From the IMG/VR virus record IMGVR_UViG_2547132279_000005: 18,175 bases of DNA, one strand, 5' to 3'. A program made the translations under genes and the position numbers. The DNA is from a virus (taxonomy: Duplodnaviria; Heunggongvirae; Uroviricota; Caudoviricetes). The notes below the pieces were generated by a model, which did no database searches, was not told the origin of the DNA, and saw only the letters and a program-made list of their open reading frames with translations. Below, piece by piece: positions 1,451 through 18,175 of the stretch; positions within the stretch are counted from its first letter, which is position 1; each line of letters begins with the position of its first letter.

Positions 1451-1464
1451 ATTGACAGAAAGCG

Positions 1465-3025: not shown

Positions 3026-3028
3026 ATC

Positions 3029-3936
3029 ATGCCCGCCGTTGACCTTTCCCAGTTACCGGAACCCGCCATCATCGCGGAGCCTGACTTTGAAGCAATTCTG
3101 GCTGACACAAAAGCCATGATGATTGCGTCCTATCCCGCCGAACAGCGTGAAGCCGTTTCCGCCGCACTGGAGCTGGAATCGGAACCCCTTAACGTTATCG
3201 CTCAAACCATGTCGTTTCGTGAAATGCTGTTACGCCAGCGGGTCAATGAGGGTGCACGCGCCTGCATGTTAAGCCACAGCGCCGGGACAAACCTGGACAA
3301 CCTCGCAGGCAATATGAACACAAAGCGCCTGGTTATCACTCCGGCAACGGATACCACCGACGCAGTGATGGAAAGTGACACCTCGCTGAGACTGCGGGCG
3401 CAACGGGCGTATGACGGTCTGAGTGTTGCTGGCCCGTCAGGTGCATACGAGTATTTTGCACGCAGCGCCAGCGGTCTGGTACGCGACGCGCGGGCCATCA
3501 GTCCGTCTCCGGCAAATGTGACGGTTTCCATCCTGTCCACTGACTGTCCACTGAAGGCGACGGCACAGCAACGGAGGCGTTGCTTAATACCGTTCGCGCC
3601 GTTCTGAATGCAGAGGATACCCGCCCGGTGGCCGACCGCCTGACCGTACAGAGTGCCAGAATCGTGACATGGCGGCTGAATGCAAAACTGTACTTTTACC
3701 CCGGCCCGGAATCCGAACCTATTCTGGCCGCGGCTGAATCGTCGTTCAGGAAGTGGCTGGCTGAGCAGGGGCTTATCGGTCAGGACGTGGCGTTGTCCGC
3801 CATTGCTGCCGCACTGCATGTGCACGGTGTGCAACGCGTGGAGATAATCGAACCCACACAGAATATGGCCATCAGCGACATACAGGCGGCGCGCTGTGAG
3901 TCGTTCACCATCAGCGAAGGTGGGCGCAATGAGTAA
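3029..3936 (+). pseudogene. J: Baseplate protein gpJ, disrupted by an 11-bp tandem duplication causing a frameshift
   Basis: The J homologue is split between ORF 3029..3607 and ORF 3580..3936. CTGTCCACTGA occurs twice in perfect tandem at 3533-3543 and 3544-3554. Deleting one copy restores a single 299-codon frame reading ...VTVSILSTEGDGTATEALLNTVRAVLNAEDTRPVADRLTVQ..., colinear with P2 gpJ (...VTISVLS...VRPVADRVTVQ...). Confidence 0.85.
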
Positions 3937-4459
3937 TTCACTGTTACCACCATCAGCCAGCAGTTTCATGCGTTGTGCCGAAGCTGTCGGAACGCGCATT
4001 ACAGACATCCCGGTAGACCTCAACACGCTGTGGTCGCCGGACACCTGCCCGGTGCACCTGCTGCCTTATCTCGCCTGGGCATTTTCCGTTGACCGTTGGG
4101 ATCGCAACTGGCCGGAAGAGGCAAAACGACAGGTGATTCGTGATGCATGGCTGATACACCGACACAAAGGGACCATCAGCGCACTGCGCAGGGCCATTGA
4201 GCCGCTGGGATACCTCATTCGCGTGTCTGAGTGGTGGGAGTTCGGCGGAGAACCGGGAACATTTACCGTTGAAGTCGGCACACTGGACAGTGGCGTGACG
4301 GAGGAAATGTATCTGGAAATGGAGCGGTTGATTGCTGATGCCCGTCCGGTCAGCCGCCACATGACAGGGCTGAATATCATTCAGGAAATTCCGGGGGATA
4401 TTTTTGCAGCGGCGGCAACTTATGACGGTGAAGTTATTACCATTTATCCGGACGATTAA
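3929..4459 (+). CDS. I: Baseplate protein gpI
   Basis: Starts at ATG 3929, overlapping the J stop. WSPDTCPVHLLPYLAWAFSVDRWD and KRQVIRDAW...HKGTI...EMERLIADA closely match P2 gpI (WNPDTCPANLLPWLAWAFSVDRWD...). Confidence 0.9.
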   Translation: MSNSLLPPSASSFMRCAEAVGTRITDIPVDLNTLWSPDTCPVHLLPYLAWAFSVDRWDRNWPEEAKRQVIRDAWLIHRHKGTISALRRAIEPLGYLIRVSEWWEFGGEPGTFTVEVGTLDSGVTEEMYLEMERLIADARPVSRHMTGLNIIQEIPGDIFAAAATYDGEVITIYPDD

Positions 4460-4461
4460 GC

Positions 4462-6756
4462 ATGAGTACCACAACACGAAAATTTAAAACCGTTATCACC
4501 GATACAGGTGCCAAAAAATTAGCTCAGGCAGCCGCGCCAGATGGTAAGCCTGTTCGCCTGACTCATATGGCCGTGGGCGACGGTGGCGGCACGTTGCCCA
4601 CACCAGACAGTAAGCAGACCCGTCTGGTGCATGAGGTGTGGCGACACACAGTTAATCGCGTCATCCTGGACGCAACACATCAGAACCGCATTATTGCGGA
4701 GCTGGTTATTCCTCCTGAAACGGGCGGATTCTGGATCCGGGAAATTGGTGTATTTGATGAGCACGGCGATTTAATCGCGGTGGGCAATACTGCCGAAAGT
4801 TACAAGCCAGCCGTTGCTGAAGGGTCCGGTCGTGCACAAACATTTCGCACCATTCTGACCGTATCCAGCACGGCCACCGTGGCGCTTACCGTGGATAACA
4901 CCATGGTGATGGCCACAGTGGATTACGTGGATGACAAACTGAAAGAGCATGAACAGTCACGACGTCACCCGGACGCCTCGCTGACCGCAAAAGGCTTTGT
5001 TCAACTCAGTAGCGCCACTAACAGCGTGTCTGAAACGCAGGCTGCAACGCCGAAAGCGGTTAAGGCCGCATATGACCTGGCTAACGGAAAATATACCGCT
5101 CAGGACGCCACGACGGCACGAAAAGGCCTTGTCCAGCTCAGTAGCGCCACCAACAGCACGTCTGAAACGCAGGCTGCAACGCCGAAAGCAGTAAAGGCCG
5201 CGTATGACCTTGCTAACGCAAAATATACCGCTCAGGACGCCACGACGGCACAAAAAGGGATAGTCCAGCTCAGTAGTGCCACCAACAGCACGTCTGAAAC
5301 ACTGGCCGCGACATCGAAAGCGGTTAAGGCGGTAATGGATGAAACGAACAAGAAAGCGCCCTTAAACAGTCCTGCGCTGACCGGAACGCCAACAACACCA
5401 ACTGCGCGACAGGGAACGAATAATACCCAAATCGCAAGCACGGCTTTCGTTATGGCTGCGATTGCCGCCCTTGTAGATTCGTCACCTGACGCACTGAATA
5501 CGCTGAACGAGTTAGCGGCGGCGCTGGGAAACGACCCGAATTTTGCGACCACCATGACTAACGCGCTTGCGGGTAAGCAACCGAAAGATGCCACCCTGAC
5601 GGCGCTGGCCGGGCTTGCTACTGCGGCAGACAAGTTTCCGTATTTTACGGGGAATGATGTCGCCAGCCTGGCAACCCTGACAAAAGTCGGGCGGGATATT
5701 CTTGCGAAATCGACCGTTGCTGCCGTTATCGAATACCTCGGTTTACAGGAAACGGTAAACAGGGCTGGTAACGCCGTGCAAAAAAATGGCGATACCTTGT
5801 CCGGTGGGCTTACTTTTGAAAACGACTCAATCCTTGCCTGGATTCGAAATACTGACTGGGCAAAGATTGGTTTTAAAAATGATGCCGATAGCGATACTGA
5901 TTCATACATGTGGTTTGAAACAGGCGACAACGGCAATGAATATTTCAAATGGAGAAGCAAACAAAGCACCACAACAAAAGACCTGATGAATCTTAAATGG
6001 GATGCTTTGTCTGTTCTTGTTAAAGCCCTTTTCAGCAGTGAAGTAAAAATATCGACAGTCAATGCACTGAGGATATTTAATTCATCTTTTGGTGCCATTT
6101 TTCGCCGTTCTGAAGAATGCCTGCATATCATCCCTACACGAGAGAATGAGGGGGAAAATGGCGATATAGGGCCGCTACGCCCCTTTACGCTTAATCTCAG
6201 AACTGGTCGCATAAATATGGGGCATGGTCTGGATGTTACAGGAGATATAACAACTAACGCATGGGTGTACGCAAACCGCCTTGCAATTAACAGCAGTACA
6301 GGCATGTGGATTCATATGCGTGACCAGAATGTTATTTTTGGACGTAATGCGGTATCCACTGATGGTGCTCAGGCTTTGCTCCGTCAGGACCATGCCGACC
6401 GCAAATTTATGATTGGCGGTCTGGGAAATAAGCAATTTGGCATCTACATGATTAATAACTCAAGGACAGCCAATGGCACCGATGGTCAGGCGTACATGGA
6501 CAATAACGGTAACTGGCTTTGCGGTGCGCAAATTATTCCCGGAAATTATGGCAATTTTGACTCACGCTATGTGAGAGATGTCCGACTTGGCACACGTGTT
6601 GTTCGATTGATGGCGCGTGGAGGGCGTTATGAAATAGCCGGACACGCACTTACCGGATTAAGGATTATTGGTGAAGTTGATGGCGATGATGAAGCTATCT
6701 TCAGGCCGATACAAAAATACATCAATGGCATATGGTATAACGTCGCACAGGTGTAA
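4462..6756 (+). CDS. H: Tail fibre protein gpH (constant N-terminal part fused to the currently expressed variable C-terminal segment)
   Basis: 764 aa. The N-terminus (MSTTTRKFKTVITDTGAKKLAQAA) and overall architecture are gpH-like, with 44-aa tandem repeats. The gix-like crossover site lies in frame at codons VIEYLGLQE (5725-5751). The C-terminus ends ...RPIQKYINGIWYN.., the same motif as the alternative cassette. Confidence 0.9.
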   Translation: MSTTTRKFKTVITDTGAKKLAQAAAPDGKPVRLTHMAVGDGGGTLPTPDSKQTRLVHEVWRHTVNRVILDATHQNRIIAELVIPPETGGFWIREIGVFDEHGDLIAVGNTAESYKPAVAEGSGRAQTFRTILTVSSTATVALTVDNTMVMATVDYVDDKLKEHEQSRRHPDASLTAKGFVQLSSATNSVSETQAATPKAVKAAYDLANGKYTAQDATTARKGLVQLSSATNSTSETQAATPKAVKAAYDLANAKYTAQDATTAQKGIVQLSSATNSTSETLAATSKAVKAVMDETNKKAPLNSPALTGTPTTPTARQGTNNTQIASTAFVMAAIAALVDSSPDALNTLNELAAALGNDPNFATTMTNALAGKQPKDATLTALAGLATAADKFPYFTGNDVASLATLTKVGRDILAKSTVAAVIEYLGLQETVNRAGNAVQKNGDTLSGGLTFENDSILAWIRNTDWAKIGFKNDADSDTDSYMWFETGDNGNEYFKWRSKQSTTTKDLMNLKWDALSVLVKALFSSEVKISTVNALRIFNSSFGAIFRRSEECLHIIPTRENEGENGDIGPLRPFTLNLRTGRINMGHGLDVTGDITTNAWVYANRLAINSSTGMWIHMRDQNVIFGRNAVSTDGAQALLRQDHADRKFMIGGLGNKQFGIYMINNSRTANGTDGQAYMDNNGNWLCGAQIIPGNYGNFDSRYVRDVRLGTRVVRLMARGGRYEIAGHALTGLRIIGEVDGDDEAIFRPIQKYINGIWYNVAQV
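4989..5340 (+). repeat. About three tandem copies of a 132-bp (44-aa) coding repeat inside H
   Basis: Units begin near 4989, 5121 and 5252 and encode KG(F/L/I)VQLSSATNS(V/T)SETQAATPKAVKAAYDLAN(G/A)KYTAQDATTA(R/Q); the third copy is diverged. Confidence 0.85.
5726..5751. promoter_or_regulatory. Left gix/hix-like invertase crossover site, inside H
   Basis: TTATCGAATACCTCGGTTTACAGGAA matches the reverse complement of the site at 8797-8822 at 24 of 26 positions, and has the two-half-site layout around a central dinucleotide seen in Gin/Hin/Cin sites. Confidence 0.85.
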
Positions 6757-6759
6757 ATT

Positions 6760-7287
6760 ATGCAGCATTTAAAAAATATTAAGTCTGGAAATCCAAAAAC
6801 AAAAGAACAATATCAGCTAACAAAGAATTTTGATGTTATCTGGTTATGGTCCGAAGACGGAAAAAACTGGTATGAGGAAGTGAAAAACTTTCAGCCAGAC
6901 ACAATAAAGATTGTTTACGATGCAAATAATATTATTGTCGCCATCACCAAAGATGCCTCCACGCTTAACCCTGAAGGTTATAGCGTCGTTGAGGTTCCTG
7001 ATATTACAGCTAATCGTCGTGCTGATGATTCCGGTAAGTGGATATTTAAGGACGGAGCTGTGGTTAAACGGATTTATACGGCAGACGAGCAACAACAACA
7101 GGCCGAATCACAAAAGGCCGCGTTACTTTCCGAAGCAGAAAACGTTATTCAGCCACTGGAACGCGCTGTCAGGCTGAATATGGCGACGGATGAGGAACGC
7201 GCACGACTGGAGTCATGGGAACGCTATAGTGTTCTGGTCAGCCGTGTGGATACGGCAAATCCTGAATGGCCACAAAAGCCTGAATAA
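6760..7287 (+). CDS. G: Tail fibre assembly chaperone (P2 gpG / Mu U / Tfa family), paired with the current fibre C-terminus
   Basis: 175 aa, immediately downstream of H. The N-terminus [24 protein letters not shown] is paralogous to the minus-strand gene at 7316..7849. Confidence 0.85.
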
Positions 7288-7292
7288 AAATT

Positions 7293-7312
7293 AAGGCCCG
7301 ATAGCGGGCCTT
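7293..7312. terminator. Bidirectional hairpin terminator between the convergent tfa genes
   Basis: AAGGCCCG-ATAG-CGGGCCTT stem-loop, flanked by an A-run upstream and a T-rich tract downstream, between the stops of the two convergent chaperone genes. Confidence 0.6.
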
Positions 7313-7315
7313 GTT

Positions 7316-7849
7316 TCATTCTGGTTGTTCTGGAAACGTTACTGGCAGGCTGTAGGTGTCTGTGGATTCGACCTTCTGCGCATAGAGCATCCACTCGGTT
7401 AATTTTTGTTTATTCTCGTCGGAAATGATACCCAGCCGTAGCTGTGAGTCCCATAGCTGGGTTTTATCCCTGACAAGTTGCAACAGGCTTTGCTTTTCAT
7501 TCTCTGCCTGCTGCCTCTGTTCCTCCTCGGTATAAGTTCGCTTTATCACTACGCCATCTTTGAACATCCATTTACCCGAAATATCAGCCCGGCGATTTGC
7601 TGTAATATCAGGTAATTCAACGACGCTTGCGCCTTCTGGATTAATTGCTGAAACATCCTTTTCAATACAAATAATAACGCCGTTACGGTCATAGACCATT
7701 TTCAACGTATCAGGCTGAAAGTTCTTTTGTTCCTCATACCAGTTTTTTCCATCATCTGAATAAAGCCATTTGATGTTAAATTGTTTCGTTAGCTGGTATT
7801 GCTCTTTTGTTTTAGGGTTGCCAGCAGTAATGTTTTTTAAGTGCATCAT
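7316..7849 (-). CDS. Alternative tail fibre assembly chaperone (Tfa'/U'-like)
   Basis: 177 aa. N-terminus [24 protein letters not shown] and central [10 protein letters not shown] are paralogous to the plus-strand tfa. Lies immediately downstream of the alternative fibre segment. Confidence 0.85.
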   Translation of the reverse strand: MMHLKNITAGNPKTKEQYQLTKQFNIKWLYSDDGKNWYEEQKNFQPDTLKMVYDRNGVIICIEKDVSAINPEGASVVELPDITANRRADISGKWMFKDGVVIKRTYTEEEQRQQAENEKQSLLQLVRDKTQLWDSQLRLGIISDENKQKLTEWMLYAQKVESTDTYSLPVTFPEQPE

Positions 7850-7851
7850 AA

Positions 7852-8796
7852 TTAAATACTCCCCGCGTTATACCACCTTCCATTAATGCAATACTGAATT
7901 GGCCTTGCCTGAGTTGTATCAATTAATTCATCACGGTTTCCGTTAACTGAACCCGTAACGACATAACCTGACCTGTCAGACCAGCCGGGACCATTCCATG
8001 TCTGAACAGATGACAGACCGCCCAGGCGAATACCTGTAATAAACCTTGAGTTACATTCTGCCTGCGTATATGCACCAACATCCCCCGCAGAGGGTTTGCG
8101 GGTTGTGGTGTAAAACTCTGACCAGTTAGCTTCAAAGCCATAACCATCACGCGCTGAACGATAAAAGATACCGCCGTTTTTATAATTCACGCGGAACTGT
8201 ACAGCAGGGCAACTCCCCGCATTCATATTAAAGTGGAGGATTAATGTCGATGCGCCACTGATATCTGCATCATAAACGCCGCTATTCCAGTTCCAGCCAA
8301 CAGCTTTATCATTTGCAACCCTGCTTCCTGTTTGCCCTAAAGCAAATGCAGGCTGCTGGTTTTTCGTGTTGTAGTCTCGTCGCCAGCCAGGAGCATAAGC
8401 ATCACCATGATTAATATAGGTGAATTGAGCGTTAGTAATTCCGCCACCGCTGGATGTACTCGGCGTAGTAACGCGTATGGTCATTGCGCCGCGAGTGCCA
8501 ATAACTTCCACCACAGCACCTGCAAGACAAATATTTCCGCAACCTGTATCTGTAATGACCTTATTGTTTGCATAAGCCCATGAGCCTTTGCACATCCAGT
8601 AAGGATGGTTAAATGCCCCCTGACTCTCCAGCCACGAAATGAATTGTGCGGTTGTCCAGGTCTGACTATCGCCACCAATATTCAGCCATGCGCTATATGC
8701 GCGGCAGGCACCAATATTTTTGGTGAAGGTATCTTTTCCTGGAATATCTGCGCCGTTCTGTTTTTTCTGTAATGCACCAGAAGCCTGATTTACCGT
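7852..8796 (-). CDS. Promoterless alternative tail-fibre C-terminal segment (Hv'), expressed only after inversion fuses it to the constant part of H
   Basis: The minus-strand frame is open from the right crossover site (8797-8822) to the stop at 7852. Reading across the site gives ...QETVNQASGALQKKQNGADIP...MCKGSWAYANNKV..., in frame with H codons ...VIEYLGLQE. It ends ...RPIQYCINGRWYN.., like the current C-terminus. Confidence 0.8.
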   Translation of the reverse strand, partial: TVNQASGALQKKQNGADIPGKDTFTKNIGACRAYSAWLNIGGDSQTWTTAQFISWLESQGAFNHPYWMCKGSWAYANNKVITDTGCGNICLAGAVVEVIGTRGAMTIRVTTPSTSSGGGITNAQFTYINHGDAYAPGWRRDYNTKNQQPAFALGQTGSRVANDKAVGWNWNSGVYDADISGASTLILHFNMNAGSCPAVQFRVNYKNGGIFYRSARDGYGFEANWSEFYTTTRKPSAGDVGAYTQAECNSRFITGIRLGGLSSVQTWNGPGWSDRSGYVVTGSVNGNRDELIDTTQARPIQYCINGRWYNAGSI

Positions 8797-8822
8797 TTCC
8801 TGTAAACCGAGGTTTTAGATAA
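8797..8822. promoter_or_regulatory. Right gix/hix-like invertase crossover site
   Basis: TTCCTGTAAACCGAGGTTTTAGATAA closely matches the remembered Mu/P1 gix-cix sequence (TTCCTGTAAACCGAGGTTTTGGATAA). It lies about 55 bp upstream of the invertase start, as in Mu. Confidence 0.85.
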
Positions 8823-8876
8823 TGGCCGTTTCTGGCCTGCATGGCATGATTTGCGCTTTTGGACGGGAGATTCAGT

Positions 8877-9464
8877 GTGCTGATTGGCTATGTAAGGGTA
8901 TCAACAAATGACCAGAATACAGACCTGCAACGAAACGCTCTTGTTTGTGCAGGATGTGAACAGATATTTGAAGATAAATTAAGCGGGACAAAGACAGACC
9001 GACCGGGATTAAAACGCGCTTTAAAGCGCCTTCAAAAAGGTGACACGCTGGTTGTCTGGAAACTGGATCGCCTCGGGCGAAGCATGAAACATCTGATTTC
9101 TCTCGTCGGGGAACTACGGGAGCGAGGGATTAATTTTCGCAGTCTGACCGACAGCATAGATACATCTTCTCCAATGGGGCGTTTTTTCTTCCACGTGATG
9201 GGGGCCCTGGCTGAAATGGAACGTGAATTAATTGTTGAACGTACACTGGCCGGACTGGCGGCAGCGCGCGCACGGGGGCGCACAGGCGGACGTCGACCGA
9301 AGCTGACAAAAGAACAGCATGAGCAAATAGCAAGGCTGATTAAAAACGGTCACGACAGAAAACAACTGGCAATAATTTACGGCATTGGTATATCGACGAT
9401 TTATCGTTACCACCCCGCAGGAGAACCAAGCGGAACAATTGAGAAGAGTCAGGAAACAAAATAA
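8877..9464 (+). CDS. Site-specific DNA invertase, serine recombinase of the Hin/Gin/Cin/Pin family
   Basis: LIGYVRVSTNDQNTDLQRNAL...GDTLVVWKLDRLGRSMKHL...MGRFFFHVMGALAEMERELIVERTLAGLAAARARGRTGGRRPKLT is near-identical in pattern to Hin/Gin, including the catalytic serine in VRVST. GTG 8877 is preferred as the start; the ORF track begins at TTG 8859. Confidence 0.9.
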   Translation: MLIGYVRVSTNDQNTDLQRNALVCAGCEQIFEDKLSGTKTDRPGLKRALKRLQKGDTLVVWKLDRLGRSMKHLISLVGELRERGINFRSLTDSIDTSSPMGRFFFHVMGALAEMERELIVERTLAGLAAARARGRTGGRRPKLTKEQHEQIARLIKNGHDRKQLAIIYGIGISTIYRYHPAGEPSGTIEKSQETK

Positions 9465-9494
9465 CCGCTAATCTGACCATTAGCGGTTTTTGTG
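9464..9494. terminator. Bidirectional rho-independent terminator between the invertase (+) and U (-)
   Basis: ACCGCTAAT-CTGACC-ATTAGCGGT stem-loop followed by TTTTGTG on the plus strand and by a T-rich run on the minus strand, between two convergent stop codons. Confidence 0.75.
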
Positions 9495-9499
9495 TTAAA

Positions 9500-9994
9500 T
9501 CAGAACATCCCTTTAACTGAACTGGCCGCGCTGTTAAGAGATGATGTCACCTTATCTTTGAAGCCGGACAGCATATCGCTGAATGATGAGGATTGCAGGC
9601 GCTCCCGCAAATCCTCATCACAGCGTTCAAGTGTCAGTGAAAATTCTATCTTTTTCGCCTTACCGTAGCGATCAAACTCGGAACGGGTCGTATTCGTTCC
9701 GGTCAGGACATACATGCCGTAAATCTGCCCGACACCATCAATCAGAGGCCAGGGGCGTCCTGTATATGCCTGCGTGGTCAGCAGCGAAAGCGACACTTCG
9801 CCACCTGTAATTTCAGGATAAAGCACGCCAGAAAGCACGATGCGATCATCACCTGCACCGATATACTGCCAGCTTGCTGAGCGGTTTACGCGCTCATTTT
9901 TCACATGCCGCCAGCTTTTGTTTTGCTGTAACTGCTGATGCGGCAATGTGCGCAGCTCAAAAACAAACATGCCGTAGATCATCATCATGGCCAT
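9500..9994 (-). CDS. U: Tail protein gpU
   Basis: 164 aa. MAMMMIYGMFVFELRTLPHQQLQQNKSWRH...LSGVLYPEITGG matches P2 gpU (MMMVLGLFVFMLRTVPYQELQYQRSWRH...LSGVLLPEVTGG). The start overlaps the T stop. Confidence 0.9.
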   Translation of the reverse strand: MAMMMIYGMFVFELRTLPHQQLQQNKSWRHVKNERVNRSASWQYIGAGDDRIVLSGVLYPEITGGEVSLSLLTTQAYTGRPWPLIDGVGQIYGMYVLTGTNTTRSEFDRYGKAKKIEFSLTLERCDEDLRERLQSSSFSDMLSGFKDKVTSSLNSAASSVKGMF

Positions 9995-10000
9995 GACTCC

Positions 10001-12844
10001 TCAATCTTTATCGTAAAAACTGCCACGTCCGGCACGGGCGCGCTGTTCCATTTCTGCCCTGACCATTTCACCGACCAGTTTCGCCAGTTCGCGGGGATTC
10101 TGTGTAACAACGTTATGCAGATGAACATGAATTTCACCGCCAAATCCGGAGGCAACAGGCTCCCGGTTACGGGAATTTGCAGGAACTGATGCCACTGGCG
10201 ATCGTATAGCCTCTGCCACCGGGCGGGAGCTGGCCGCAACAACAGGGACCAGCGCCGGAGGCAGCGGAGCCGGAACCACGGGTGTGATAGTAATTGCGGG
10301 GGCAGGCTTACTGACCTGCGCAATCTTCCGCTCCTGCCACTCCCCACGAACAGCAAGTGCGCGGGGCAGGTTCTTAAAGACAATATCACCGGGGCCAATG
10401 CGTTTTTTCGTCTCATCAACCAGCTTACCTGTGTTATCAGCAATTTTGCTGAGTCTGCGTAGCGTACCGGTATTGCTGTCTGTGAGTGGTTTGTTGTCTT
10501 TGGGTTTATCACCTCCGGTGCCATTGCCATTTTCCACAGGCTTCGGCGGATTGATTTTCGCCAGGTCCCCCTGAAGCAAGGCAACCTTGTCCTGAAGAAT
10601 GGCCGCACGCTGTGCGTCTTCGATTTTCTTGCGCGCCCTTTCAGCTTCATCCGGAAGGACGCCAAGTTTTTCAAGTATCCACGCCAGCGTATCCAGTAGC
10701 ATTTTTGCAGGTGTCAGAACAAGCTGTAACGCACCGCCAAGAACGTTACCGAATATCTCGCCAGCACTGGTACATTTATCCAGCGTTTCCTTACTGGACT
10801 CCATCGGTGACAGCAGCGATTTAAACCAGTTAAACACCTGGCTGATCCCGCTTCCGATTGCGTCAAAAACAGGGCCAAACCGTTCAAAGGTTTCGCGCAA
10901 CGGAGCCAGCCGTTCCATAATCCCACTGAACACCCCTGCATAAAACGCCTTGATGGGTTCCCAGTATTTCCAGATGAGAACCGCCGCAGCCACAAACGCA
11001 GCAGCAATCAATCCGACCGGACTGAACAGCGCCCCGATAGCGCCTCCCAGTAACGAAATGGAACCCGTCACCATTCCCCATAATGCAGGCAGAACCCTGA
11101 CAACATTCAATGATCCGGTCAGGAGGGAAAAACCAAGACGCAGTTTTGCCAGTGGGCCAGCAAGCACACCAATAGCCAGCGACAACGAGCCTATGGTTGC
11201 AGTCATTGCCAGCAGAGCACCGCCTGCAACCAGTAGCTGGCGCGTCAGTGCCGGATGGGCCTGCGCCAGCGCCGTCACCTTCGATACCACCCGCGTGAGC
11301 CACTGCGTGACAGAACGCTGCGGACCGTCAATCAGATCTGCAATGCGGATGCGCACCCCTTCCCATGCACTGCCGAGTGATTTCAGATCGCCGTCAAGGT
11401 TGTTGGCCATAACCTTTGCTGTGCGTTCAGCCTCACCGCGCGCGCCTTCAAGTTCTTTTCTCAGTTTGGGTAAGGAGCCGTCACCTGCCGCATCAACGAG
11501 GGCCATAAATGATGTGAAAGCCTCTTCTCCGGCAATATCCTTAAAGAACGATACCCGGTCAACTTCCCCGTATTTGCGGGTGGCTTTATAAAGGTCAGCC
11601 AGCAGATCTTCCATCGGGCGCATTTTGCCGTTCGCGTCAGAGACGGACACGCCCAGCTCTTTCAGCGCCTCTGCTGCTGCCTTTGGCGGTGATGCCAGAC
11701 GAGCCAGGCTGGCACGCATTGCCGTCCCGGCATCACTCCCTCTGATACCCATATTCGCCAGCACGCCAGCCATCGCTGCAGCCTGCTCCAGCGATATTCC
11801 CAGCTTACCCGCCACCGGACCGGCATATTTCATGGTTTCGCCCAGTGCGCGAAGGTCAGTGTTGGTACGGGTAAACGCTGCAGTGAGTGTGTCACCGACC
11901 CGGTCCATCTGGTCAGCAGAAAGGCCGAACTGCGTCAGGATATTTGAGCCAATATCCGCCGTCTCGCCGAGATCCATACCGCCAGCCGTTGCCATGCTCA
12001 ACACGCCGGGAAGCGCAGCCTGAATGGCCTGCGGTGTGAAGCCAGCCATTGCAAGAAATGCCTGCCCACTGGCGGCATCGCCTGCGGTGAACTGCGTTTC
12101 AGAGCCAAGTTTTAACGCCTGCTCACGCAGCGCCTTAAACTGCGGGCTGTTCTGGTCGATTCGCGTCAGCGCCTGAACGCGGGACATCTCTTTCCCGAAC
12201 CCGATTGCGGGCTGCAAAAAACGCCCGGCAGCATAGCCGCCCGCCGCTGCCGCACCAATTGCCAGTACACCACCTGTTTTCAGTTTTCCCGCTGTTTCCT
12301 GCGCACGCGAATACCGCTCACGCGCCCGCGTTACACGCGCAAGCGACTGCCGTTCGCGTTCAAGCTGGTTGTTGTACTGTTCGGTGCGCCTGATGGCCTG
12401 TTGAATGGTGTTATCGCTGCCTGTCAGGGAAATGCCGTGGCGTTTCAGCTCTCCGCCAAGCTCCCGCATTTTCTGAATTTCCCGTATGCGCGATTCATTC
12501 AGGCGTTCAAGCCGGGTGCTTAACTGCTGCATCAGCTTTTGTTGCTTTTCGCTGAGCACTGTACCCGTGCGTTGTAACTGATTAAGGGCGTTAAGCTGGC
12601 GTCGTGCTTTCACGATACCCGCATCCGCTTTACTGACAGCGTCGCGGGCGCGCTCAAATGAACGCGCCTGACGCTCGAGATTTTTGATCGCCCCCTGCGT
12701 TCGCTGGATGGAGTCACCAAACTGCCCCATCAGGCGGCGGGCGTTTTCGGCAGGCCGGGTCAGCCTGTCAACGGCGCTGAAAGCGACCCGGATATCAAGA
12801 GTCTTCATTGTCTGCATTCCCGCTGCGAAGTGCCGCCCGCTCAC
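10001..12844 (-). CDS. T: Tail tape measure protein gpT
   Basis: 947 aa, coiled-coil-rich N-terminus with central hydrophobic and glycine-rich segments, positioned between E/E' and U. The true start may be an internal Met (MQTMK or MKTLD), since the E' frame overlaps the 5' end. Confidence 0.85.
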   Translation of the reverse strand: MSGRHFAAGMQTMKTLDIRVAFSAVDRLTRPAENARRLMGQFGDSIQRTQGAIKNLERQARSFERARDAVSKADAGIVKARRQLNALNQLQRTGTVLSEKQQKLMQQLSTRLERLNESRIREIQKMRELGGELKRHGISLTGSDNTIQQAIRRTEQYNNQLERERQSLARVTRARERYSRAQETAGKLKTGGVLAIGAAAAGGYAAGRFLQPAIGFGKEMSRVQALTRIDQNSPQFKALREQALKLGSETQFTAGDAASGQAFLAMAGFTPQAIQAALPGVLSMATAGGMDLGETADIGSNILTQFGLSADQMDRVGDTLTAAFTRTNTDLRALGETMKYAGPVAGKLGISLEQAAAMAGVLANMGIRGSDAGTAMRASLARLASPPKAAAEALKELGVSVSDANGKMRPMEDLLADLYKATRKYGEVDRVSFFKDIAGEEAFTSFMALVDAAGDGSLPKLRKELEGARGEAERTAKVMANNLDGDLKSLGSAWEGVRIRIADLIDGPQRSVTQWLTRVVSKVTALAQAHPALTRQLLVAGGALLAMTATIGSLSLAIGVLAGPLAKLRLGFSLLTGSLNVVRVLPALWGMVTGSISLLGGAIGALFSPVGLIAAAFVAAAVLIWKYWEPIKAFYAGVFSGIMERLAPLRETFERFGPVFDAIGSGISQVFNWFKSLLSPMESSKETLDKCTSAGEIFGNVLGGALQLVLTPAKMLLDTLAWILEKLGVLPDEAERARKKIEDAQRAAILQDKVALLQGDLAKINPPKPVENGNGTGGDKPKDNKPLTDSNTGTLRRLSKIADNTGKLVDETKKRIGPGDIVFKNLPRALAVRGEWQERKIAQVSKPAPAITITPVVPAPLPPALVPVVAASSRPVAEAIRSPVASVPANSRNREPVASGFGGEIHVHLHNVVTQNPRELAKLVGEMVRAEMEQRARAGRGSFYDKD

Positions 12845-13031
12845 GCCAGCTAACCACTTCGCCGGGCGTCATCATGAAGATTTCGGCGGGCGACCAGTTA
12901 AAAATAACGGCAATATCTGCCACAAAGTCTTCTATGTGCTCAAAGCACACAACCGTGATCAGGCTTCCGTCGCCTGTTCGTTCTTCCCGCCAGAGTCCGC
13001 ACCGCTCAAAAAATTTACGGCAACCACACAT
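12795..13031 (-). CDS. E' frame: C-terminal extension of the tail assembly chaperone, reached by -1 programmed frameshift from E
   Basis: This -1 frame overlaps the 3' end of E and runs into the T start region. The slippery heptamer TTTTTTG is on the coding strand at 13007-13013. Same arrangement as P2 E/E'. Confidence 0.75.
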   Translation of the reverse strand: MCGCRKFFERCGLWREERTGDGSLITVVCFEHIEDFVADIAVIFNWSPAEIFMMTPGEVVSWRERAALRSGNADNEDS

Positions 13032-13324
13032 AACTGAATAAAGTCACGGGATGCCATTTTTTTGATCGTCACTTCATCCAGTCGCGGTGATGTCACGCGT
13101 GACAGCAGCGTAAACATGGATTCCGCTTTCAGACTCAGCACATCAGACAGCGACAAATCTCGCAGAGATCCAGCCTGCTCAATAGCCCCGGTGATCTCCA
13201 CATACGTGATTTTTTCGCCGCTTCGCTCAATTGGTTGGGTAAGTTTTACGCCACGCTCACTGGTTTCTTTCACAGTGTCAGTAACTACCGTGTTTTCGGT
13301 ATCGATGTTTTTCGTCTCTTTCAT
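12959..13324 (-). CDS. E: Tail assembly chaperone gpE
   Basis: 121 aa, acidic, between FII and T. The slippery site lies near the 3' end (...AVNFLSGADSGGKNEQATEA). Confidence 0.8.
   Translation of the reverse strand: MKETKNIDTENTVVTDTVKETSERGVKLTQPIERSGEKITYVEITGAIEQAGSLRDLSLSDVLSLKAESMFTLLSRVTSPRLDEVTIKKMASRDFIQLCVVAVNFLSGADSGGKNEQATEA
13007..13013 (-). promoter_or_regulatory. -1 programmed ribosomal frameshift slippery site (T TTT TTG) for E to E+E'
   Basis: The coding strand reads AAA TTT TTT GAG; the E frame continues N-F-L-S and the -1 frame continues F-F-E-R into the E' ORF. Confidence 0.75.
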
Positions 13325-13378
13325 CAGGAAACTCCTTTCAGTCAGAGGCGACGCACTGCGCCGCCTGCATATTACTTA

Positions 13379-13891
13379 TCAGCCAAGCCCAAGCGCGGAA
13401 CGGATGCGATCGGGCACAATGTCCTTGCCGTCCTTCCGGTAAATGAAGTTCAGCAGGTCAATCTCCCACAACGGGCGATCGTTAACACTCAGCTTGTAGT
13501 AGGTGTTTTTAATGGCATAAGTGTGTGATGTGGCTTCGCCCTGTTTGGCTTCCCCCATATCAATTTCCGTCACACGTCCGCGCATTTCGACTTCATACAG
13601 GTCGCTTTCTGCATCGGTGTAGTATTCACCTGCAAAACGCAGCAGTGTGCCGTCAATCGTGCCGCCATACTTAAGGAACAGCTCACGAACTGCGCCCCCC
13701 ATGACAAAGCTCGCATCAAGCGCGGAGTCGTCCAGGCCGAGATCAATACTTACCGCCCCCATCATGCCACCACCCCGGTAGCTGTCGGTTTTGCGCGTCA
13801 GCTTAGGCAGAGTGACGGACGTCACCTTACCCACTTCGTTTTCACCATCCACAAACAGCGTAAAAAAGCGAAGATGTTTTGGCACAGCCAT
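13379..13891 (-). CDS. FII: Tail tube protein gpFII
   Basis: 170 aa. SVTLPKLTRKTDSYRGGGMMGAVSIDLGLDD matches P2 FII (SVTLPKLTRKLENYRGAGMNGSAPVDLGLDD). Confidence 0.9.
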   Translation of the reverse strand: MAVPKHLRFFTLFVDGENEVGKVTSVTLPKLTRKTDSYRGGGMMGAVSIDLGLDDSALDASFVMGGAVRELFLKYGGTIDGTLLRFAGEYYTDAESDLYEVEMRGRVTEIDMGEAKQGEATSHTYAIKNTYYKLSVNDRPLWEIDLLNFIYRKDGKDIVPDRIRSALGLG

Positions 13892-15075
13892 CAGGCACCT
13901 CCCAGCACCGCAAATGCGGGTTCAAAGTATTCATCAGTAAACGTCTGGTAAAGCTCCATGTCTTCCAGTGGCGGAACGGGCGTATATTTGTAGCGAATAC
14001 GCACACGTCCCTGACGTAAATCCGTGGTGCTGTTATCCACCACGTCATACCAGCACTCCGCGCCAATCAGTTTCCCGGCAGTAACCAGTGAATCCAGTTT
14101 TGCCCTGATGGCACTGATAACATCCTTCACGTTCGCAGGCGTCAGTGGACTGTCGATGGTTTCAAACTGCGCTTCCGCAATTGAATCAGCCAGCACCTGT
14201 GCGGTTCGGGTATACACCTCAAAGATGTAGGCGTTCGTTTCCGGTGTGCGGTTGCCCCAGAAGCGGAACCCGTTGCGACGAATAATGGTCGTGATTTCTT
14301 TGTTGTTGAGGCTGTTGGCATCGCTGTCTTCGGCCTGCAACGACCAGAACACATGCCTCGACATCCCCAGCACATTTTTAACCGGAACGTTGGACAGTGA
14401 TTTGTGCCATCCCTGCTCATGGTCAATGTACGCACGAAGGCCGCACGCATAGGCAGGCGCGGGGAACGTTTCGTTTTTGCCACTTTTCGGGTTGTAGGCG
14501 ATGAAGTCCGGCCATAAGAGCATCACCTCACGTTCGTTGAATTTCTGGCGGTAGGTAATCGCCTCAGCCATCGTGTTACAGCCGTGACATGAGGCATACA
14601 CAAACGCGCGCAGTTTACCTGCAATCACGCACAGGGATTTTGTTACAGCCTCCGTGTCCAGCTCCGGCGCGGCCAGAATACGCGGACGGTATCCGATGCT
14701 TTCATCCTGCTCTGCAACAAGCAGCGCATACATCCCCGTATAGCTGCCGTCATCCTCAGAACCACCGATAACCAGTTGATCCTGCGTCTTTCCGTCTTCT
14801 TCTTTGTGTTCAGCCACGCGAACGACGATCACCTTTGTGCTCACCTGGTCTGCGATGGCCTTAAGCGCACGATAAAGCGTCCCCGTTGTCCCGCATTTTC
14901 CCAGCACGTCATTGACGCGGGTCAGCAGTGTGGGCTTGTTCAGCGGGAACAGCTTCGCGTCCGCATCATCCGCCGTTGCCACGATACCGATAACGCTGGA
15001 ATCAACATCGTTAATCGCTGTTACCAGGTCGGTATTTTCCGTAACACGGGCACCATGAAAACGAGTTTCACTCAT
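13891..15075 (-). CDS. FI: Contractile tail sheath protein gpFI
   Basis: 394 aa with FPLNKP, KLRAF, GWHKSLSNV, IRRNGFRFWGNRT, YTRTAQV and YTPVPPLE, all matching the P2 FI pattern. Confidence 0.9.
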   Translation of the reverse strand: MSETRFHGARVTENTDLVTAINDVDSSVIGIVATADDADAKLFPLNKPTLLTRVNDVLGKCGTTGTLYRALKAIADQVSTKVIVVRVAEHKEEDGKTQDQLVIGGSEDDGSYTGMYALLVAEQDESIGYRPRILAAPELDTEAVTKSLCVIAGKLRAFVYASCHGCNTMAEAITYRQKFNEREVMLLWPDFIAYNPKSGKNETFPAPAYACGLRAYIDHEQGWHKSLSNVPVKNVLGMSRHVFWSLQAEDSDANSLNNKEITTIIRRNGFRFWGNRTPETNAYIFEVYTRTAQVLADSIAEAQFETIDSPLTPANVKDVISAIRAKLDSLVTAGKLIGAECWYDVVDNSTTDLRQGRVRIRYKYTPVPPLEDMELYQTFTDEYFEPAFAVLGGA

Positions 15076-15232
15076 AGCTTCAGCCCCTTGTATCCGTTAA
15101 ATGATTCGGCAACAATCATCACCCACCACGCGCGTAATCTCACCCCTGCGCCGTTCTCCCGTCACGGCGACAACAAAAAGCAGTAACCCCCTCCGCACGC
15201 ACATGCGACCATGCCGCACAGGGAGGGAACAG

Positions 15233-16342
15233 ATGACCGATACCACCATGCAATTGCTCAGTCAGGGCACAGACCCCGTGAAAATGCCGGATTTTGATAT
15301 TCTCGCGGAGGGTAAAACGCTGTCAGGCGTGGCCGAGCGCCTGATGAGCCTGTCACTGACCGACAACCGGGGATTTGAGGCGGACCAGCTCACCATCACG
15401 CTGGATGATGCGGATGGTCAGTTGCAGCTACCGCCACGGGGCGCGCGCCTGACGGTTCTCATTGGCTGGAAAGGAGAACCGCTGACAGAAAAAGGCACTT
15501 ACATTGTTGATGAAATCGCTCACGAAGGACCGCCGGACAGGCTGACTGTTTCAGCCAGAAGCGCAGATTTTCGGGATGAATTTAACGTTAAACGTGAGGT
15601 GTCCTGGCATGATGTGACCATTGAGCGTGTGGTATCCGCCATCGCTCATCGGTATGGTCTGAAACCGCAAATCAGCGAAATGCTGATGGATATCGAAATC
15701 GACCACGCCGACCAGACTGAAGAAAGCGACATGTCCTTCCTTACGCGCATGGCGGAAATGCTGGGCGCAATCACCACGGTAAAAAGCGGTAATCTGTTAT
15801 TCATCATGCCCGGCGGTGGCGTGAACGCACAGGGCCAGCCGTTGCCATCGTTCGCCATCACACGCAGCAGCGGCGATCGCCATCAGTTCCGCATTGCTGA
15901 CCGCGAGGCGTATACGGGGGTACGCGCTTACTGGCTTGATCTTAATTACGGGAAAAAGAAAAAAGTCAGCGTGAAACGCCGCAAACCGCCAAAACCCAAA
16001 AAGGAGAAAAGCAGCAGCCGTGAAGGTGATTATATGGAAGGCGCGGAAGGCAATGTGTTTGTGTTACGCAAGACTTATCAGAACGAGCAGGCAGCAAGAC
16101 GCGCAGCGGCGGCAAAGTGGCAGCAGCTACAACGCGGAGCCGCATCATTCTCCATCACGCTGGCGCGTGGACGCGCAGAACTCTATCCCGAAATGCATGG
16201 CACGGTGAAAGGCTTCAAAAGTGACATCGACAATCAGGACTGGATTATTGCAAAAGCTGAGCACACCATTGATAACAGCGGCTTTACCACACAGCTTGAG
16301 CTTGAGGCAAAAATCCCGGAATGGATAGCGGAAACAGAGTGA
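15233..16342 (+). CDS. D: Tail protein gpD (late control gene D / baseplate hub)
   Basis: LMSLSLTDNRGFEADQLTITLDDADGQLQLPPRGARLTVLIGWKG, RSADFR, SDMSFLTRMAE and a lysine-rich linker followed by EGDYMEGAEGNVF are colinear with P2 gpD. Start chosen at ATG 15233, preceded by GGGAGGG; the ORF track extends upstream to 15101. Confidence 0.85.
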   Translation: MTDTTMQLLSQGTDPVKMPDFDILAEGKTLSGVAERLMSLSLTDNRGFEADQLTITLDDADGQLQLPPRGARLTVLIGWKGEPLTEKGTYIVDEIAHEGPPDRLTVSARSADFRDEFNVKREVSWHDVTIERVVSAIAHRYGLKPQISEMLMDIEIDHADQTEESDMSFLTRMAEMLGAITTVKSGNLLFIMPGGGVNAQGQPLPSFAITRSSGDRHQFRIADREAYTGVRAYWLDLNYGKKKKVSVKRRKPPKPKKEKSSSREGDYMEGAEGNVFVLRKTYQNEQAARRAAAAKWQQLQRGAASFSITLARGRAELYPEMHGTVKGFKSDIDNQDWIIAKAEHTIDNSGFTTQLELEAKIPEWIAETE

Positions 16343-16384
16343 AGAACTTAGAATAGCGGCAGCACCACGTTAAGGGAGGTCGCT

Positions 16385-16645
16385 ATGTTCCGTTGTCCGC
16401 TTTGTGGCGCATCTGCCCGTATCCGCACCAGTCGTCCGGAAAATGATTCAAACACCGTGCGGCAAAAGTATTACCAGTGTAACAACCTGGAATGCGGCGT
16501 ATGCTTCTCAACACTGGAAGCCTTCCATAAATTCACATCGAAACACGCCTCCGGCGTTCACTCATCAGAAGGTATTCCGTGGCATGAGCTGCCAGCTTCA
16601 CACAGGGGAAACAATCAGATGAGTTTGCCTTTACCTCAGAATTAA
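16385..16645 (+). CDS. ogr: Ogr/Delta-family zinc-finger late transcription activator
   Basis: MFRCPLCGASARIRTSRPENDSNTVRQKYYQCNNLEC has the same CxxC...CxxxxC layout and ARTSR motif as P2 Ogr (MFHCPLCQHAAHARTSR...YHQCQNVNC). Preceded by an AGGGAGG Shine-Dalgarno sequence. Confidence 0.85.
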   Translation: MFRCPLCGASARIRTSRPENDSNTVRQKYYQCNNLECGVCFSTLEAFHKFTSKHASGVHSSEGIPWHELPASHRGNNQMSLPLPQN

Positions 16646-16718
16646 CAGGCAGAATTGCCGGAGTAACAAAAAAGCGATAGATTACGCGCGGGTGCCTTTC
16701 GGCTGATGGTCGGAGGGA

Positions 16719-16916
16719 ATGCCCGAAGGCCAGATGTGGAAAGGCCCCGGAAAACATCTCTGTTTAACCGAGGCCCTAACCGTCTACCTAGCAAGTGATA
16801 GGTTAGCGCCTCCCCGAAAAAGGAGCAAGCGCTATGTCGCAAAAATCGCTTACAGCCATCACGTTCTGTGTGACGGCAATCCTCATCATCTGGATGCTGC
16901 ACGGCTCGCTGTGTGA
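16719..16916 (+). CDS. mok-like overlapping reading frame upstream of and overlapping the hok-like gene
   Basis: A 65-codon ORF begins 115 nt upstream of the hok-like start and overlaps it in another frame, as mok does in hok/sok loci. There is no independent sequence support. Confidence 0.35.
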   Translation: MPEGQMWKGPGKHLCLTEALTVYLASDRLAPPRKRSKRYVAKIAYSHHVLCDGNPHHLDAARLAV

Positions 16917-16974
16917 AATACGGATGAACTTCTGGGGAGCGGAGTTTGCGGCGTTCTTACAGTGTAAACAGTAA
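16834..16974 (+). CDS. Hok/Gef-family type I toxin (small membrane protein)
   Basis: The 46-aa product MSQKSLTAITFCVTAILIIWMLHGSLCEIRMNFWGAEFAAFLQCKQ has an N-terminal transmembrane segment and the family motifs SLCE(I/L)R and AAFL.CK (compare Hok RKSLCEIR; HokA ...WMIRDSLCEL...ELAAFLACK). SD is AAGGAG. A 9-bp-stem hairpin at 16984-17007 lies just downstream. Confidence 0.75.
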   Translation: MSQKSLTAITFCVTAILIIWMLHGSLCEIRMNFWGAEFAAFLQCKQ

Positions 16975-17064
16975 GGAAACCGCGACGGGGGAAGAGATTC
17001 CCCCGTCAATCGGTTGCCAGGGTAAGGTCGATAAGGCACCCTATCTCACAGACATGAACAACAA

Positions 17065-17098
17065 ACCCGCAGCGTAAAAACTGCGGGTTTTCTTTTTG
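17065..17098 (+). terminator. Rho-independent terminator downstream of the hok-like gene
   Basis: ACCCGCAG-CGTAAAAA-CTGCGGGT stem-loop followed by TTTCTTTTTG. Confidence 0.75.
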
Positions 17099-17182: not shown

Positions 17183-17226
17183 TTGTTATCATATCGGCAG
17201 CAGTAACCACACAAGAGGTGCCGCAA

Positions 17227-17424
17227 ATGACGCAAAATGTACGATGCAAAAATTGCAACAAACTACTTGCCCGCGCCTCATTTCACTACATTGAAATAAA
17301 ATGTCCGCGCTGCAAAACACTTAACCAGATAACGAGAGCCATCGAGCACCCCACACACATGAGGAGTTATGACCGTGGGGATCGCAATCCAGCACCAACC
17401 AGCACATACACCGGAACACACTAA
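17227..17424 (+). CDS. com: Com-like zinc-finger translational regulator (Mu Com homologue)
   Basis: MTQNVRCKNCNKLLARASFHYIEIKCPRCK matches Mu Com (MKSIRCKNCNKLLFKADSFDHIEIRCPRCK), with four Cys in a CxxC...CxxC layout. SD AAGAGG lies 9 nt upstream of ATG 17227. The 3' end overlaps the methyltransferase start. Confidence 0.85.
   Translation: MTQNVRCKNCNKLLARASFHYIEIKCPRCKTLNQITRAIEHPTHMRSYDRGDRNPAPTSTYTGTH
17349..17380 (+). promoter_or_regulatory. RNA hairpin enclosing the methyltransferase Shine-Dalgarno sequence and start codons (candidate Com target)
   Basis: CCCCAC (17349-17354) and GTGGGG (17375-17380) are exactly complementary. They flank GAGGAG (17361-17366) and ATG 17369, and the in-frame GTG 17375 is part of the 3' arm. 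Confidence 0.45.
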
Positions 17425-18175
17425 GGTTTATCAGACTGACAATGCCACGCTCTGTCGTGGGAATGCGCTGGAAATATTGCCGCTGATTGAGCCAGAAAGC
17501 ATTGATGCCTTAATCACTGACCCGCCTTACAGTTCGGGTGCGACACACAAGGCCGGACGCACCAACCAGGGCAGCCATGCAAAATATCTGAACGGCGAGA
17601 ACCTTCACCGCTTTGATGGGTTCGCGGGTGAAAACATGGACGCCCGTTCGTGGGCTTACTGGACACAATTATGGATGGCACAGGCACACCGCGCAGTCAG
17701 GCCGGGCGGTTATGCCCTGGTATTTACTGACTGGCGACAACTACCAGCTTTAACCGATGCGTTTCAGGCCAGTGGCTTTACATGGCGCGGCATCATTGCG
17801 TGGAACAAGGGGAGGGGGTCACGAACACCACATACCGGGTATTTCCGGCATCAGTGCGAATACATCGTCTGGGGCAGCAAAGGCCATTTAGATAAATCGC
17901 CTTCGGGACCGTTCGACGGCTGCATGACGTTCCCGGTTATCCCGTCAAAGAAAATGCACCCGACCGGAAAACCAGAAGAACTAATGGCGGAACTGGTCAG
18001 GACTGTGAATAGTGGCGGAACAGTCCTCGATCCTTTTATGGGGTCAGGGACAACGGGTGTGGCTGCACTGAAAGCAGGGCGAAAATTTATTGGTATAGAA
18101 ACCAGTGATCATTATTTTGAGGTAGCAGCGCAGAGGCTTCGGGGGACTATTACCACAACCATTTCGGCTACATAA
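17369..18175 (+). CDS. DNA methyltransferase, beta-class amino-methyltransferase (probable N6-adenine), com-linked
   Basis: Motif IV DPPY (ITDPPYSS) precedes motif I FxGxG (LDPFMGSGTTG), with HPTGKP between, the motif order of beta-class N6/N4 methyltransferases. The start overlaps the com 3' end; ATG 17369 or GTG 17375. The stop TAA is at 18173-18175. Confidence 0.85.
   Translation: MTVGIAIQHQPAHTPEHTKVYQTDNATLCRGNALEILPLIEPESIDALITDPPYSSGATHKAGRTNQGSHAKYLNGENLHRFDGFAGENMDARSWAYWTQLWMAQAHRAVRPGGYALVFTDWRQLPALTDAFQASGFTWRGIIAWNKGRGSRTPHTGYFRHQCEYIVWGSKGHLDKSPSGPFDGCMTFPVIPSKKMHPTGKPEELMAELVRTVNSGGTVLDPFMGSGTTGVAALKAGRKFIGIETSDHYFEVAAQRLRGTITTTISAT

Follow-up and report, generated by a model that had tools for sequence, protein, structure and literature searches.

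Inversion of the FI-to-U tail block relative to D and ogr as a fixed gene order in a clade of P2-like enterobacterial prophages, with predicted divergent late promoters at one Ogr-type activator site

In phage P2, the tail genes FI, FII, E, E', T, U and D form one co-directional operon that is read from the promoter pF, with ogr following D. In this arrangement U and D overlap, and no separate promoter serves D. The same genes, in the same internal order and likewise with ogr after D, occur in the IMG/VR virus record IMGVR_UViG_2547132279_000005 (Caudoviricetes), an 18,175-nucleotide stretch of DNA that is referred to here, at its full length, as the window, and whose tail proteins are 31-49% identical to those of P2. 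Unlike in P2, however, the block from FI to U is inverted in the window, and D and ogr form a separate unit which diverges from FI across an intergenic gap of 157 bp (15076-15232). A preliminary description, made from the sequence alone, had recognised this topology as that of P2 with the FI-U block inverted, and had offered two readings of it: a lineage whose late operons have an architecture of their own, with divergent promoters for FI and D, or an inversion that had separated D from its operon. The comparisons described below show an order that is fixed throughout a clade, with a single ancestral inversion as its most likely origin and with predicted divergent FI and D late promoters that would share one activator site. 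For this reading as a whole, a probability of roughly 0.8 appears appropriate.

The closest relatives of the window are P88 and, in addition, PhiSM/Shae_phiSM, 503458, 520873 and P884B11. P88 (Xuanwuvirus P88, Peduoviridae) aligns with window positions 1458-17097 as one collinear piece at 97.4% identity, and its annotation places every gene on the same strand as in the window. The resemblance includes the order and strands of the fibre genes and the invertase, of U-T-E-FII-FI on the minus strand and of D-ogr on the plus strand, as well as an FI-D gap of the same 157 bp with the same GTTCT...ACAAC box. Taking into account this level of identity over 15.6 kb, together with the 94-96% identity to other Xuanwuvirus records in a window-length comparison, the window represents the tail region of a P88-like P2-type Escherichia coli prophage (genus Xuanwuvirus, family Peduoviridae). 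The Citrobacter phage PhiSM has the same gene order as the window, and further Xuanwuvirus records share it, as judged by single-strand matches over the block. At the level of bacterial genomes, a 757-bp query across the FI-D junction was recovered almost in full from 1,357 of the 5,426 complete E. coli genomes searched. A second, synthetic query imitated the P2 arrangement by placing the 5' end of D directly after the 3' end of U; its separate halves matched in 1,412 genomes, and in none of them were the halves joined (at a coverage of at least 80%). The order in P88 and PhiSM, the counts of the FI-D junction and the complete absence of a joined U-D query together establish that the FI-U orientation is fixed and not polymorphic.

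Several phages with this order are known to be functional. P88 has been characterised by mitomycin C induction, plaques, a one-step growth curve with burst size and electron microscopy images (PMC5285337). For PhiSM, plaque formation and lysogeny in E. coli K-12 have been described (PMC6456863), and SEN4/5 is a plaque-forming myovirus for which plaque-forming units and electron microscopy images have been reported (PMC5261728). The comparison of synteny with related P2-like phages, which had been proposed in the preliminary description, has thus found the order in many of them, independent functional phages included, which makes it an ordinary lineage trait and not a recent rearrangement. Mapped divergent late promoters are the part for which no counterpart was found: the literature searched, a search outside of which the main review of these phages falls, contains no paper on the FI-U inversion or on the mapping of FI and D promoters.

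Beyond the genus Xuanwuvirus, the block U-T-E-FII-FI lies on the opposite strand to D in Salmonella phage SEN5 (Senquatrovirus; D 63% identical to that of the window) and in Klebsiella phage Kp4871-3 (Reginaelenavirus; D 70% identical), both of which are without an invertase. Kapieceevirus and Felsduovirus SEN8, where D is 52-53% identical, have the canonical order, and in SEN8 an invertase is followed directly by a co-directional FI. A wider sample was gathered through alignment of the D protein, with 160 further loci comprising the best 80 matches from one-genome-per-species bacterial contigs and the best 80 from IMG/VR. This gave 166 related loci in all, whose orientation was called by local tblastn with the window proteins. 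Where D was at least 60.6% identical to that of the window, every classifiable locus was inverted (129 of 129), and where it was at most 53.7% identical, every locus was canonical (16 of 16). Inverted loci have been detected in Escherichia, Salmonella, Citrobacter, Klebsiella, Enterobacter, Kosakonia, Pantoea, Erwinia, Brenneria, Pectobacterium, Symbiopectobacterium, Serratia, Edwardsiella, Xenorhabdus, Photorhabdus, Providencia, Morganella, Yersinia and Hafnia. One further prophage, in an assembly labelled as the Gram-positive 'Vagococcus sp. WN89Y' (NZ_JBQPOM010000071.1; locus L008), has a D that is 98% identical to the E. coli-type protein, with contamination or a mislabelled assembly as the most likely explanation.

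The inverted loci form one clade in a neighbour-joining tree of D, and again in a separate neighbour-joining tree of FI; these are simple distance trees, and the rest of the family was spot-checked only. Some pairs inside the clade are less similar (down to 53.4% for D and 49.9% for FI) than the closest pairs between the clade and canonical phages (up to 58.3% for D and 60.1% for FI), so that the split is not merely an effect of distance from the query. The canonical order is also present in distant relatives, namely P2, Burkholderia phage Mana, Shewanella phage M16-3, Ralstonia phage YO140_2 and the non-Peduoviridae Vibrio phage VP58.5. The inverted FI-U block next to D-ogr is the fixed order of a deep enterobacterial P2-like clade, which comprises Xuanwuvirus, Reginaelenavirus, Senquatrovirus and many unnamed prophages. 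The simplest reading, and most likely the correct one, is that the block was inverted once, long ago, in the ancestor of these phages. The breakpoints could not be read from the protein ends, as the C-terminal tail of U (beyond residue 128 or so) and roughly the first 18 residues of D vary in every lineage, the canonical ones included.

The gap between FI and D raises the matter of how the two units are transcribed. It had been suggested that D may lack a late promoter in this arrangement, given that no canonical Ogr box (TGT-N12-ACA) was seen there. It is literally true that 15076-15232 contains no exact TGT-N12-ACA, but the demand for an exact box is too strict, as the pF box of P2 and the box shared by its pP and pO promoters both read TGT-N12-CCA, with one mismatch each (according to our reading of the P2 sequence). 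An Ogr-type box with the core TCT-N12-ACA is present in the gap (Table 1), and in the alignment the homologous position in SEN5 and Kp4871-3 carries an exact TGT-N12-ACA. A box survey covered the window and 125 loci, which make up the 126 inverted sequences in which the FI start was usable. In 124 of them, the best box is located 78.5-88.5 nt from the FI ATG, and in the other two at 74.5 and 175.5 nt; the distance is 88.5 nt in the window, and the centre of the P2 pF box is 82.5 nt from FI. The right half of the box is ACA in all 126, and the left half is TGT in 58 and TCT in 63. Because the distance to FI is fixed, as it is at P2 pF, and the halves are conserved, the box may be regarded as the probable pF activator site, carried with FI through the inversion. 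The C/G variant of the left half also agrees between the P-O and the FI-D boxes of the same phage (C and C in P88; G and G in both SEN5 and Kp4871-3), a match that would fit one activator reading both sites.

Two other candidate sites were considered and set aside. The sole exact TGT-N12-ACA of the window, at 17302-17319, lies inside an open reading frame (ORF) for a Com-like zinc ribbon, where it encodes the CPRCK motif, and has been treated as a chance occurrence. In P88, a 10/10 box match inside T is likewise probably due to chance, and an extended-box search of that phage for a third late promoter, equivalent to pV, gave no convincing site beyond the P-O and FI-D gaps.

The surroundings of the box were compared, by ungapped anchoring on its centre, in 37 representatives with less than 80% mutual identity across the anchored region. 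The ACAAC of the right half is conserved in 37, 37, 37, 36 and 33 of the 37 sequences, respectively, its ACA being invariant, while the centre of the left half is C in 17 and G in 20. On the FI side, a hexamer of the form gAtnAT (FI strand) is found at 44-49 nt from the centre, with the A at its second position in 35 of 37 and the T at its sixth in 36. On the D side, a TGnaAnnAT element occupies +41 to +49 (T in 26, G in 29, A in 24, A in 33, A in 28 and T in 30 of 37), and its hexamer spans 44-49. Columns between and beyond the conserved blocks are essentially unconserved in the same sequences, which argues that shared ancestry alone is insufficient to explain the blocks. The FI-side hexamer is also present in seven control loci with the canonical order, where the opposite side holds no comparable element.

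This spacing resembles that of P2, in which the -10 hexamers of mapped promoters lie 44-50 nt from the box centre, and 44-49 nt in the case of the pP/pO pair. The P2 record gives one activator site (3057-3087) for the divergent promoters pP (start at 3016) and pO (start at 3127), and the TGT-N12-CCA core located within it in this analysis has its centre at 3071.5, with both starts 55.5 nt away. In Smp131, PP' and PO' have also been assigned to one and the same box (PMC3931495). In the FI-D gap, one box that is flanked on each side, at 44-49 nt, by conserved -10-like elements in mirror symmetry reproduces the pP/pO geometry at the level of the sequence. By analogy, the gap is predicted to hold two back-to-back late promoters on one dyad-symmetric Ogr-type site. 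The pF start is predicted near 15108, which would give FI a leader of 33 nt, and the D promoter is predicted to start near 15218-15220, with a leader of about 14 nt that would hold the GGAGGG sequence. The first of the two readings in the preliminary description, a distinct lineage architecture with divergent FI and D promoters, therefore stands as far as the order is concerned, which is fixed in P88, PhiSM and SEN4/5, and for the promoters, which are predicted, the conserved box and the two -10 elements point in the same direction. Its second reading holds in one part only: an inversion is the likely origin of the order, but it would be ancient and clade-wide, and D has a predicted late promoter and so would not be stranded.

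Further conserved features have been observed around the box. A block TTGAGTTCG (plus strand) is located 55-65 nt to the left of the box centre, at about 15098-15108, around the predicted pF start, and a TCACGC lies 19-24 nt to the left of the centre (about 15140-15145), roughly where the -35 region of pF would be. At +31 to +38, towards D, there is an alternating CGCGCGCG run that is similar to the spacers of the pP promoters of P88 and P2.

A number of points weigh against the reading proposed here. The literature searched gives no start site, Ogr binding or reporter data for the clade, and the promoter model is one of conservation and geometry. The GACCAT proposed as the -10 on the D side is a weak one, D would have a leader of just about 14 nt, and the box of the window departs from the consensus in having TCT in place of TGT. 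The agreement of the box variants rests on three genomes with just two states. It should also be considered that the conserved D-side block (CGCGCGCG-ATG/GTG-AA) could have another role; it has been judged non-coding since its third-codon positions are conserved and its first and second are not, which is an argument and not a test. As to the single origin, taking the best 80 matches from each collection means that canonical relatives are thinly sampled, and independent inversions elsewhere in the family are possible.

In the proposed course of events, the FI-U part of an ancestral F operon would have been inverted once, taking the promoter pF along. Promoter pF would now read leftward from near 15108 and a D-ogr promoter rightward from near 15219, each predicted start being located about 55 nt from the box centre at 15163.5. 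D would thus not be orphaned, and late transcription of ogr would proceed from a short D-ogr unit. The more specific proposal, that the ancient inversion split the F operon and D-ogr was rescued by a -10 element evolving at the mirror position of the dyad pF site, with one Ogr box driving both units, has somewhat better than even odds. If true, it would imply an auto-activated late ogr transcript of about 1.4 kb in place of read-through of a 6.6-kb operon, and it would provide a natural case of an operon break mended by making an existing activator site bidirectional.

A recent flip of FI-U in the window prophage itself has to be weighed against this course of events. Such a flip, for example by the Gin-type invertase acting on secondary sites and leaving D without a late promoter, might be suspected from the position of the invertase, which adjoins the block, and from the damage to this prophage elsewhere (an insertion sequence (IS) element beside S and a frameshift in J). 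It is nevertheless very improbable, considering that the functional phages P88, PhiSM and SEN4/5 share the order with 1,357 E. coli genomes, and that no genome has the alternative junction. The preliminary description had proposed a search of both junctions for gix-like sites or short inverted repeats, and this search came out empty. In scans for the entire 26-mer and for a degenerate core, allowing up to 3 mismatches, the only gix sites in the window are those at 5726-5751 and 8797-8822, with none near 9464-9500 or 15076-15232. No inverted repeats join both FI-U junctions, the only notable junction pair being the terminator hairpin itself. In addition, an invertase is detectable in just 22 of the 129 inverted loci, the remaining 107 being without one in the fetched region, and in 3 of the 16 canonical loci. 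With the gix sites located elsewhere, most inverted relatives lacking an invertase and no genome showing the other orientation, a link between the invertase and the FI-U inversion is unsupported. That the inversion could be an assembly artefact is more improbable still, to the point of being negligible, as both junctions recur in independent complete genomes and phage isolates.

Two further explanations accept the order as genuine and shared. The inverted order might have arisen several times, or have spread by recombination of tail modules, an idea that draws on the mosaic nature of P2-like phages, on a fibre/invertase cassette that has clearly been exchanged (about 94% identical to Mu, D108 and P1) and on the existence of other P2-like phages with rearranged late operons, such as Smp131 (PMC3931495). 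Against it stand the single clade recovered with both D and FI, which are genes on opposite sides of the breakpoint, the clean split between the identity ranges of inverted and canonical loci, and a promoter-region architecture that is homologous across the clade, all of which make a repeated origin quite unlikely. The order might instead be a lineage trait in which D-ogr is driven by an independent promoter, recognised by sigma-70 or another factor, or from a second, unrecognised activator site. Support for this comes from the degenerate left half of the box, with its near-even division between C and G, and from a GC-rich run in the conserved D-side block. A sigma-70 scan of 15076-15232 detected nothing on the plus strand, with one nearby match on the minus strand inside D, and the gap contains a single good box. 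Furthermore, the D-side -10 is fixed at 44-49 nt across 37 diverged sequences, mirroring both the FI side and the mapped pP/pO promoters of P2. An independent D promoter is accordingly a possible but rather unlikely alternative to the shared-site model.

Table 1. Positions of genes, sites and predicted elements in the window (a dot marks features to which no strand applies).
Feature	Position	Strand	Details
Truncated IS21-family element	1-~1457	+	IstA C-terminal part 7-612; IstB 609-1391
S, V, W, split J, I, tail fibre H and its chaperone G	after IS21-family element (~1457)	+	in this order on the plus strand
Left gix site of invertible tail-fibre segment	5726-5751	.	2 mismatches to right site; outside FI-U block
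Right gix site	8797-8822	.	TTCCTGTAAACCGAGGTTTTAGATAA; gix-like site search
Gin/Cin-type serine DNA invertase	8859-9464	+	Pfam Resolvase and HTH_7
Bidirectional intrinsic terminator	9463-9488	both	between stops of converging invertase and U; 10-bp stem, A-run on one side and T-run on the other; scored on both strands
U, tail protein	9500-9994	-	Pfam Phage_P2_GpU, 1.5e-38
T, tape measure protein	10001-12844	-	Pfam PhageMin_Tail, 7e-59
E' frameshift extension, GpE motif	12795-13031	-	Pfam Phage_P2_GpE, 1.7e-12
E, tail chaperone	12959-13324	-	no Pfam match; position between FII and T; tblastn 100% identity to P88 E
FII, tail tube	13379-13891	-	Pfam Phage_tube, 7.5e-47
FI, tail sheath	13891-15075	-	Pfam Phage_sheath_1, Gp18_domIII_N, Phage_sheath_1C
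Predicted -10 hexamer of FI-directed late promoter (pF)	15115-15120	-	GATGAT; 44-49 nt from box centre
Ogr-type activator box	15153-15174	.	GTTCTCCCGTCACGGCGACAAC; core TCT-N12-ACA 15155-15172, centre 15163.5
Predicted extended -10 of D-directed late promoter	15204-15212	+	TGcGACCAT; +41 to +49 from box centre
D, baseplate hub/tail protein	15233-16342	+	Pfam Phage_GPD; GGAGGG Shine-Dalgarno sequence at 15222-15227
Ogr/Delta-type zinc-finger late activator	16385-16645	+	Pfam Ogr_Delta, 5e-14
Com-like zinc-ribbon ORF	17218-17424		Pfam Zn_ribbon_Com

The features of the window are collected in Table 1. Gene identities were assigned from Pfam matches above the curated cut-offs, with the E ORF as the exception, and together with the ORF list they identify the window as the late/tail region of a P2-like prophage. 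The contractile tail module of P2-like phages (Peduoviridae) is complete, with FI, FII, E/E', T, U, D and the Ogr/Delta activator all present. Pfam matches and ORF coordinates agree with the strands originally given, namely U, T, E/E', FII and FI on the minus strand and D and ogr on the plus strand, divergent across 157 bp. The convergence of U with the invertase at a bidirectional terminator has also been borne out by a hairpin that scores on both strands. The start of D at 15233 is backed by the GGAGGG sequence, by the P88 annotation and by the point at which alignments with homologues begin. Upstream of this start, the D frame stays open as far back as an ATG at 15101, which is only 26 nt away from the FI start, and an ORF caller could add 44 codons across the promoter region. 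In the P88 record, a doubtful 'hypothetical protein' of 43 codons is annotated over the FI start and the gap. A search of the whole window with Rfam gave no family at the gathering threshold.

Outside the tail module, the window differs from P88 in an IS21-family element in place of the end of R, in an 11-bp duplication that frameshifts J, and in a com-like gene and a methylase beyond 17097, which are not there in P88. About 8 bp separate the end of the IS21-family element from the S start codon downstream of it, and the element replaces the sequence that encodes the end of R in P88. The phage records 503458 and 520873 match from position 1 of the window on and carry IS100-family annotations, the IS element being IS100-like there. 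J is split into ORFs at 3029-3607 and 3580-3936 by an 11-bp tandem duplication (two copies of CTGTCCACTGA, at about 3532-3542) that P88 does not have. In view of the IS element in the R/S region and the J frameshift, the window prophage is probably defective, for causes that are unrelated to the FI-U inversion.

Downstream of ogr, an ORF of 46 amino acids (16834-16974; MSQKSLTAITFCVTAILIIWMLHGSLCEIRMNF...) looks like a Hok/Gef-type toxin when judged by eye, and the P88 record has a CDS (coding sequence) of the hok/gef family (P88 34928-35068) at a roughly matching position. Terminator-like hairpins follow this ORF at 16983-17008 and 17063-17090, and neither Sok nor any other RNA family was reported by Rfam near it. 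The Com-like ORF overlaps the start of a gene for an N6/N4 DNA methyltransferase (17369 onward), a layout that recalls the com-mom arrangement of Mu (window 17218-18175).

The gix-bounded segment holds alternative fibre and chaperone genes on the minus strand. The DNA of the fibre segment and invertase (5726-9232) matches the G region of Mu/D108 and the C region of P7 at 93-95% identity, and that of P1 at about 90.5%, whereas the remaining tail region outside this cassette is only P88-like. The contrast between the two indicates that the cassette of fibre and invertase genes, which bears on host range, has been exchanged recently. As in the G segment of Mu and the C segment of P1, this is a true invertible fibre segment between gix sites, with alternative fibre/chaperone genes and an invertase. 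The FI-U block is unlike these systems in that it lies beyond the end of the segment, is flanked by neither gix sites nor inverted repeats, and has in no case been seen in the opposite orientation.

The gene order itself is already known and ordinary, being visible in the deposited annotations of P88, PhiSM and SEN5, and the genus has been classified by the International Committee on Taxonomy of Viruses (ICTV). The inversion is not mentioned in the papers describing P88, PhiSM and SEN4/5 (PMC5285337, PMC6456863, PMC5261728). The inverted order is the standard layout of a P2-like lineage that is present in about a quarter of complete E. coli genomes and in many other Enterobacterales, and it should not be flagged as a rearrangement or as the mark of a defective prophage. 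As a clean synapomorphy, the inversion also sets Xuanwuvirus, Reginaelenavirus, Senquatrovirus and their relatives apart from P2, 186 and Fels-2-type phages, and it may aid classification.

For the predicted promoters, the nearest known design is the pP/pO pair of P2. There, as in the FI-D gap, a single dyad box is located halfway between two diverging genes, the -10 hexamers are 44-49 nt to either side of its centre, and the gaps are of comparable size (157 bp for FI-D in the window, 154 bp for P-O in P88 and 173 bp for P-O in P2). The two differ in that pP/pO serves the terminase and scaffold genes and has mapped starts, whereas the site in the window would serve the sheath gene and D from starts that are predicted. 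A shared-site FI/D promoter would therefore be a modest extension of the P2 pP/pO design, and, if confirmed, would illustrate how a dyad-symmetric activator site lets an operon survive its own splitting.

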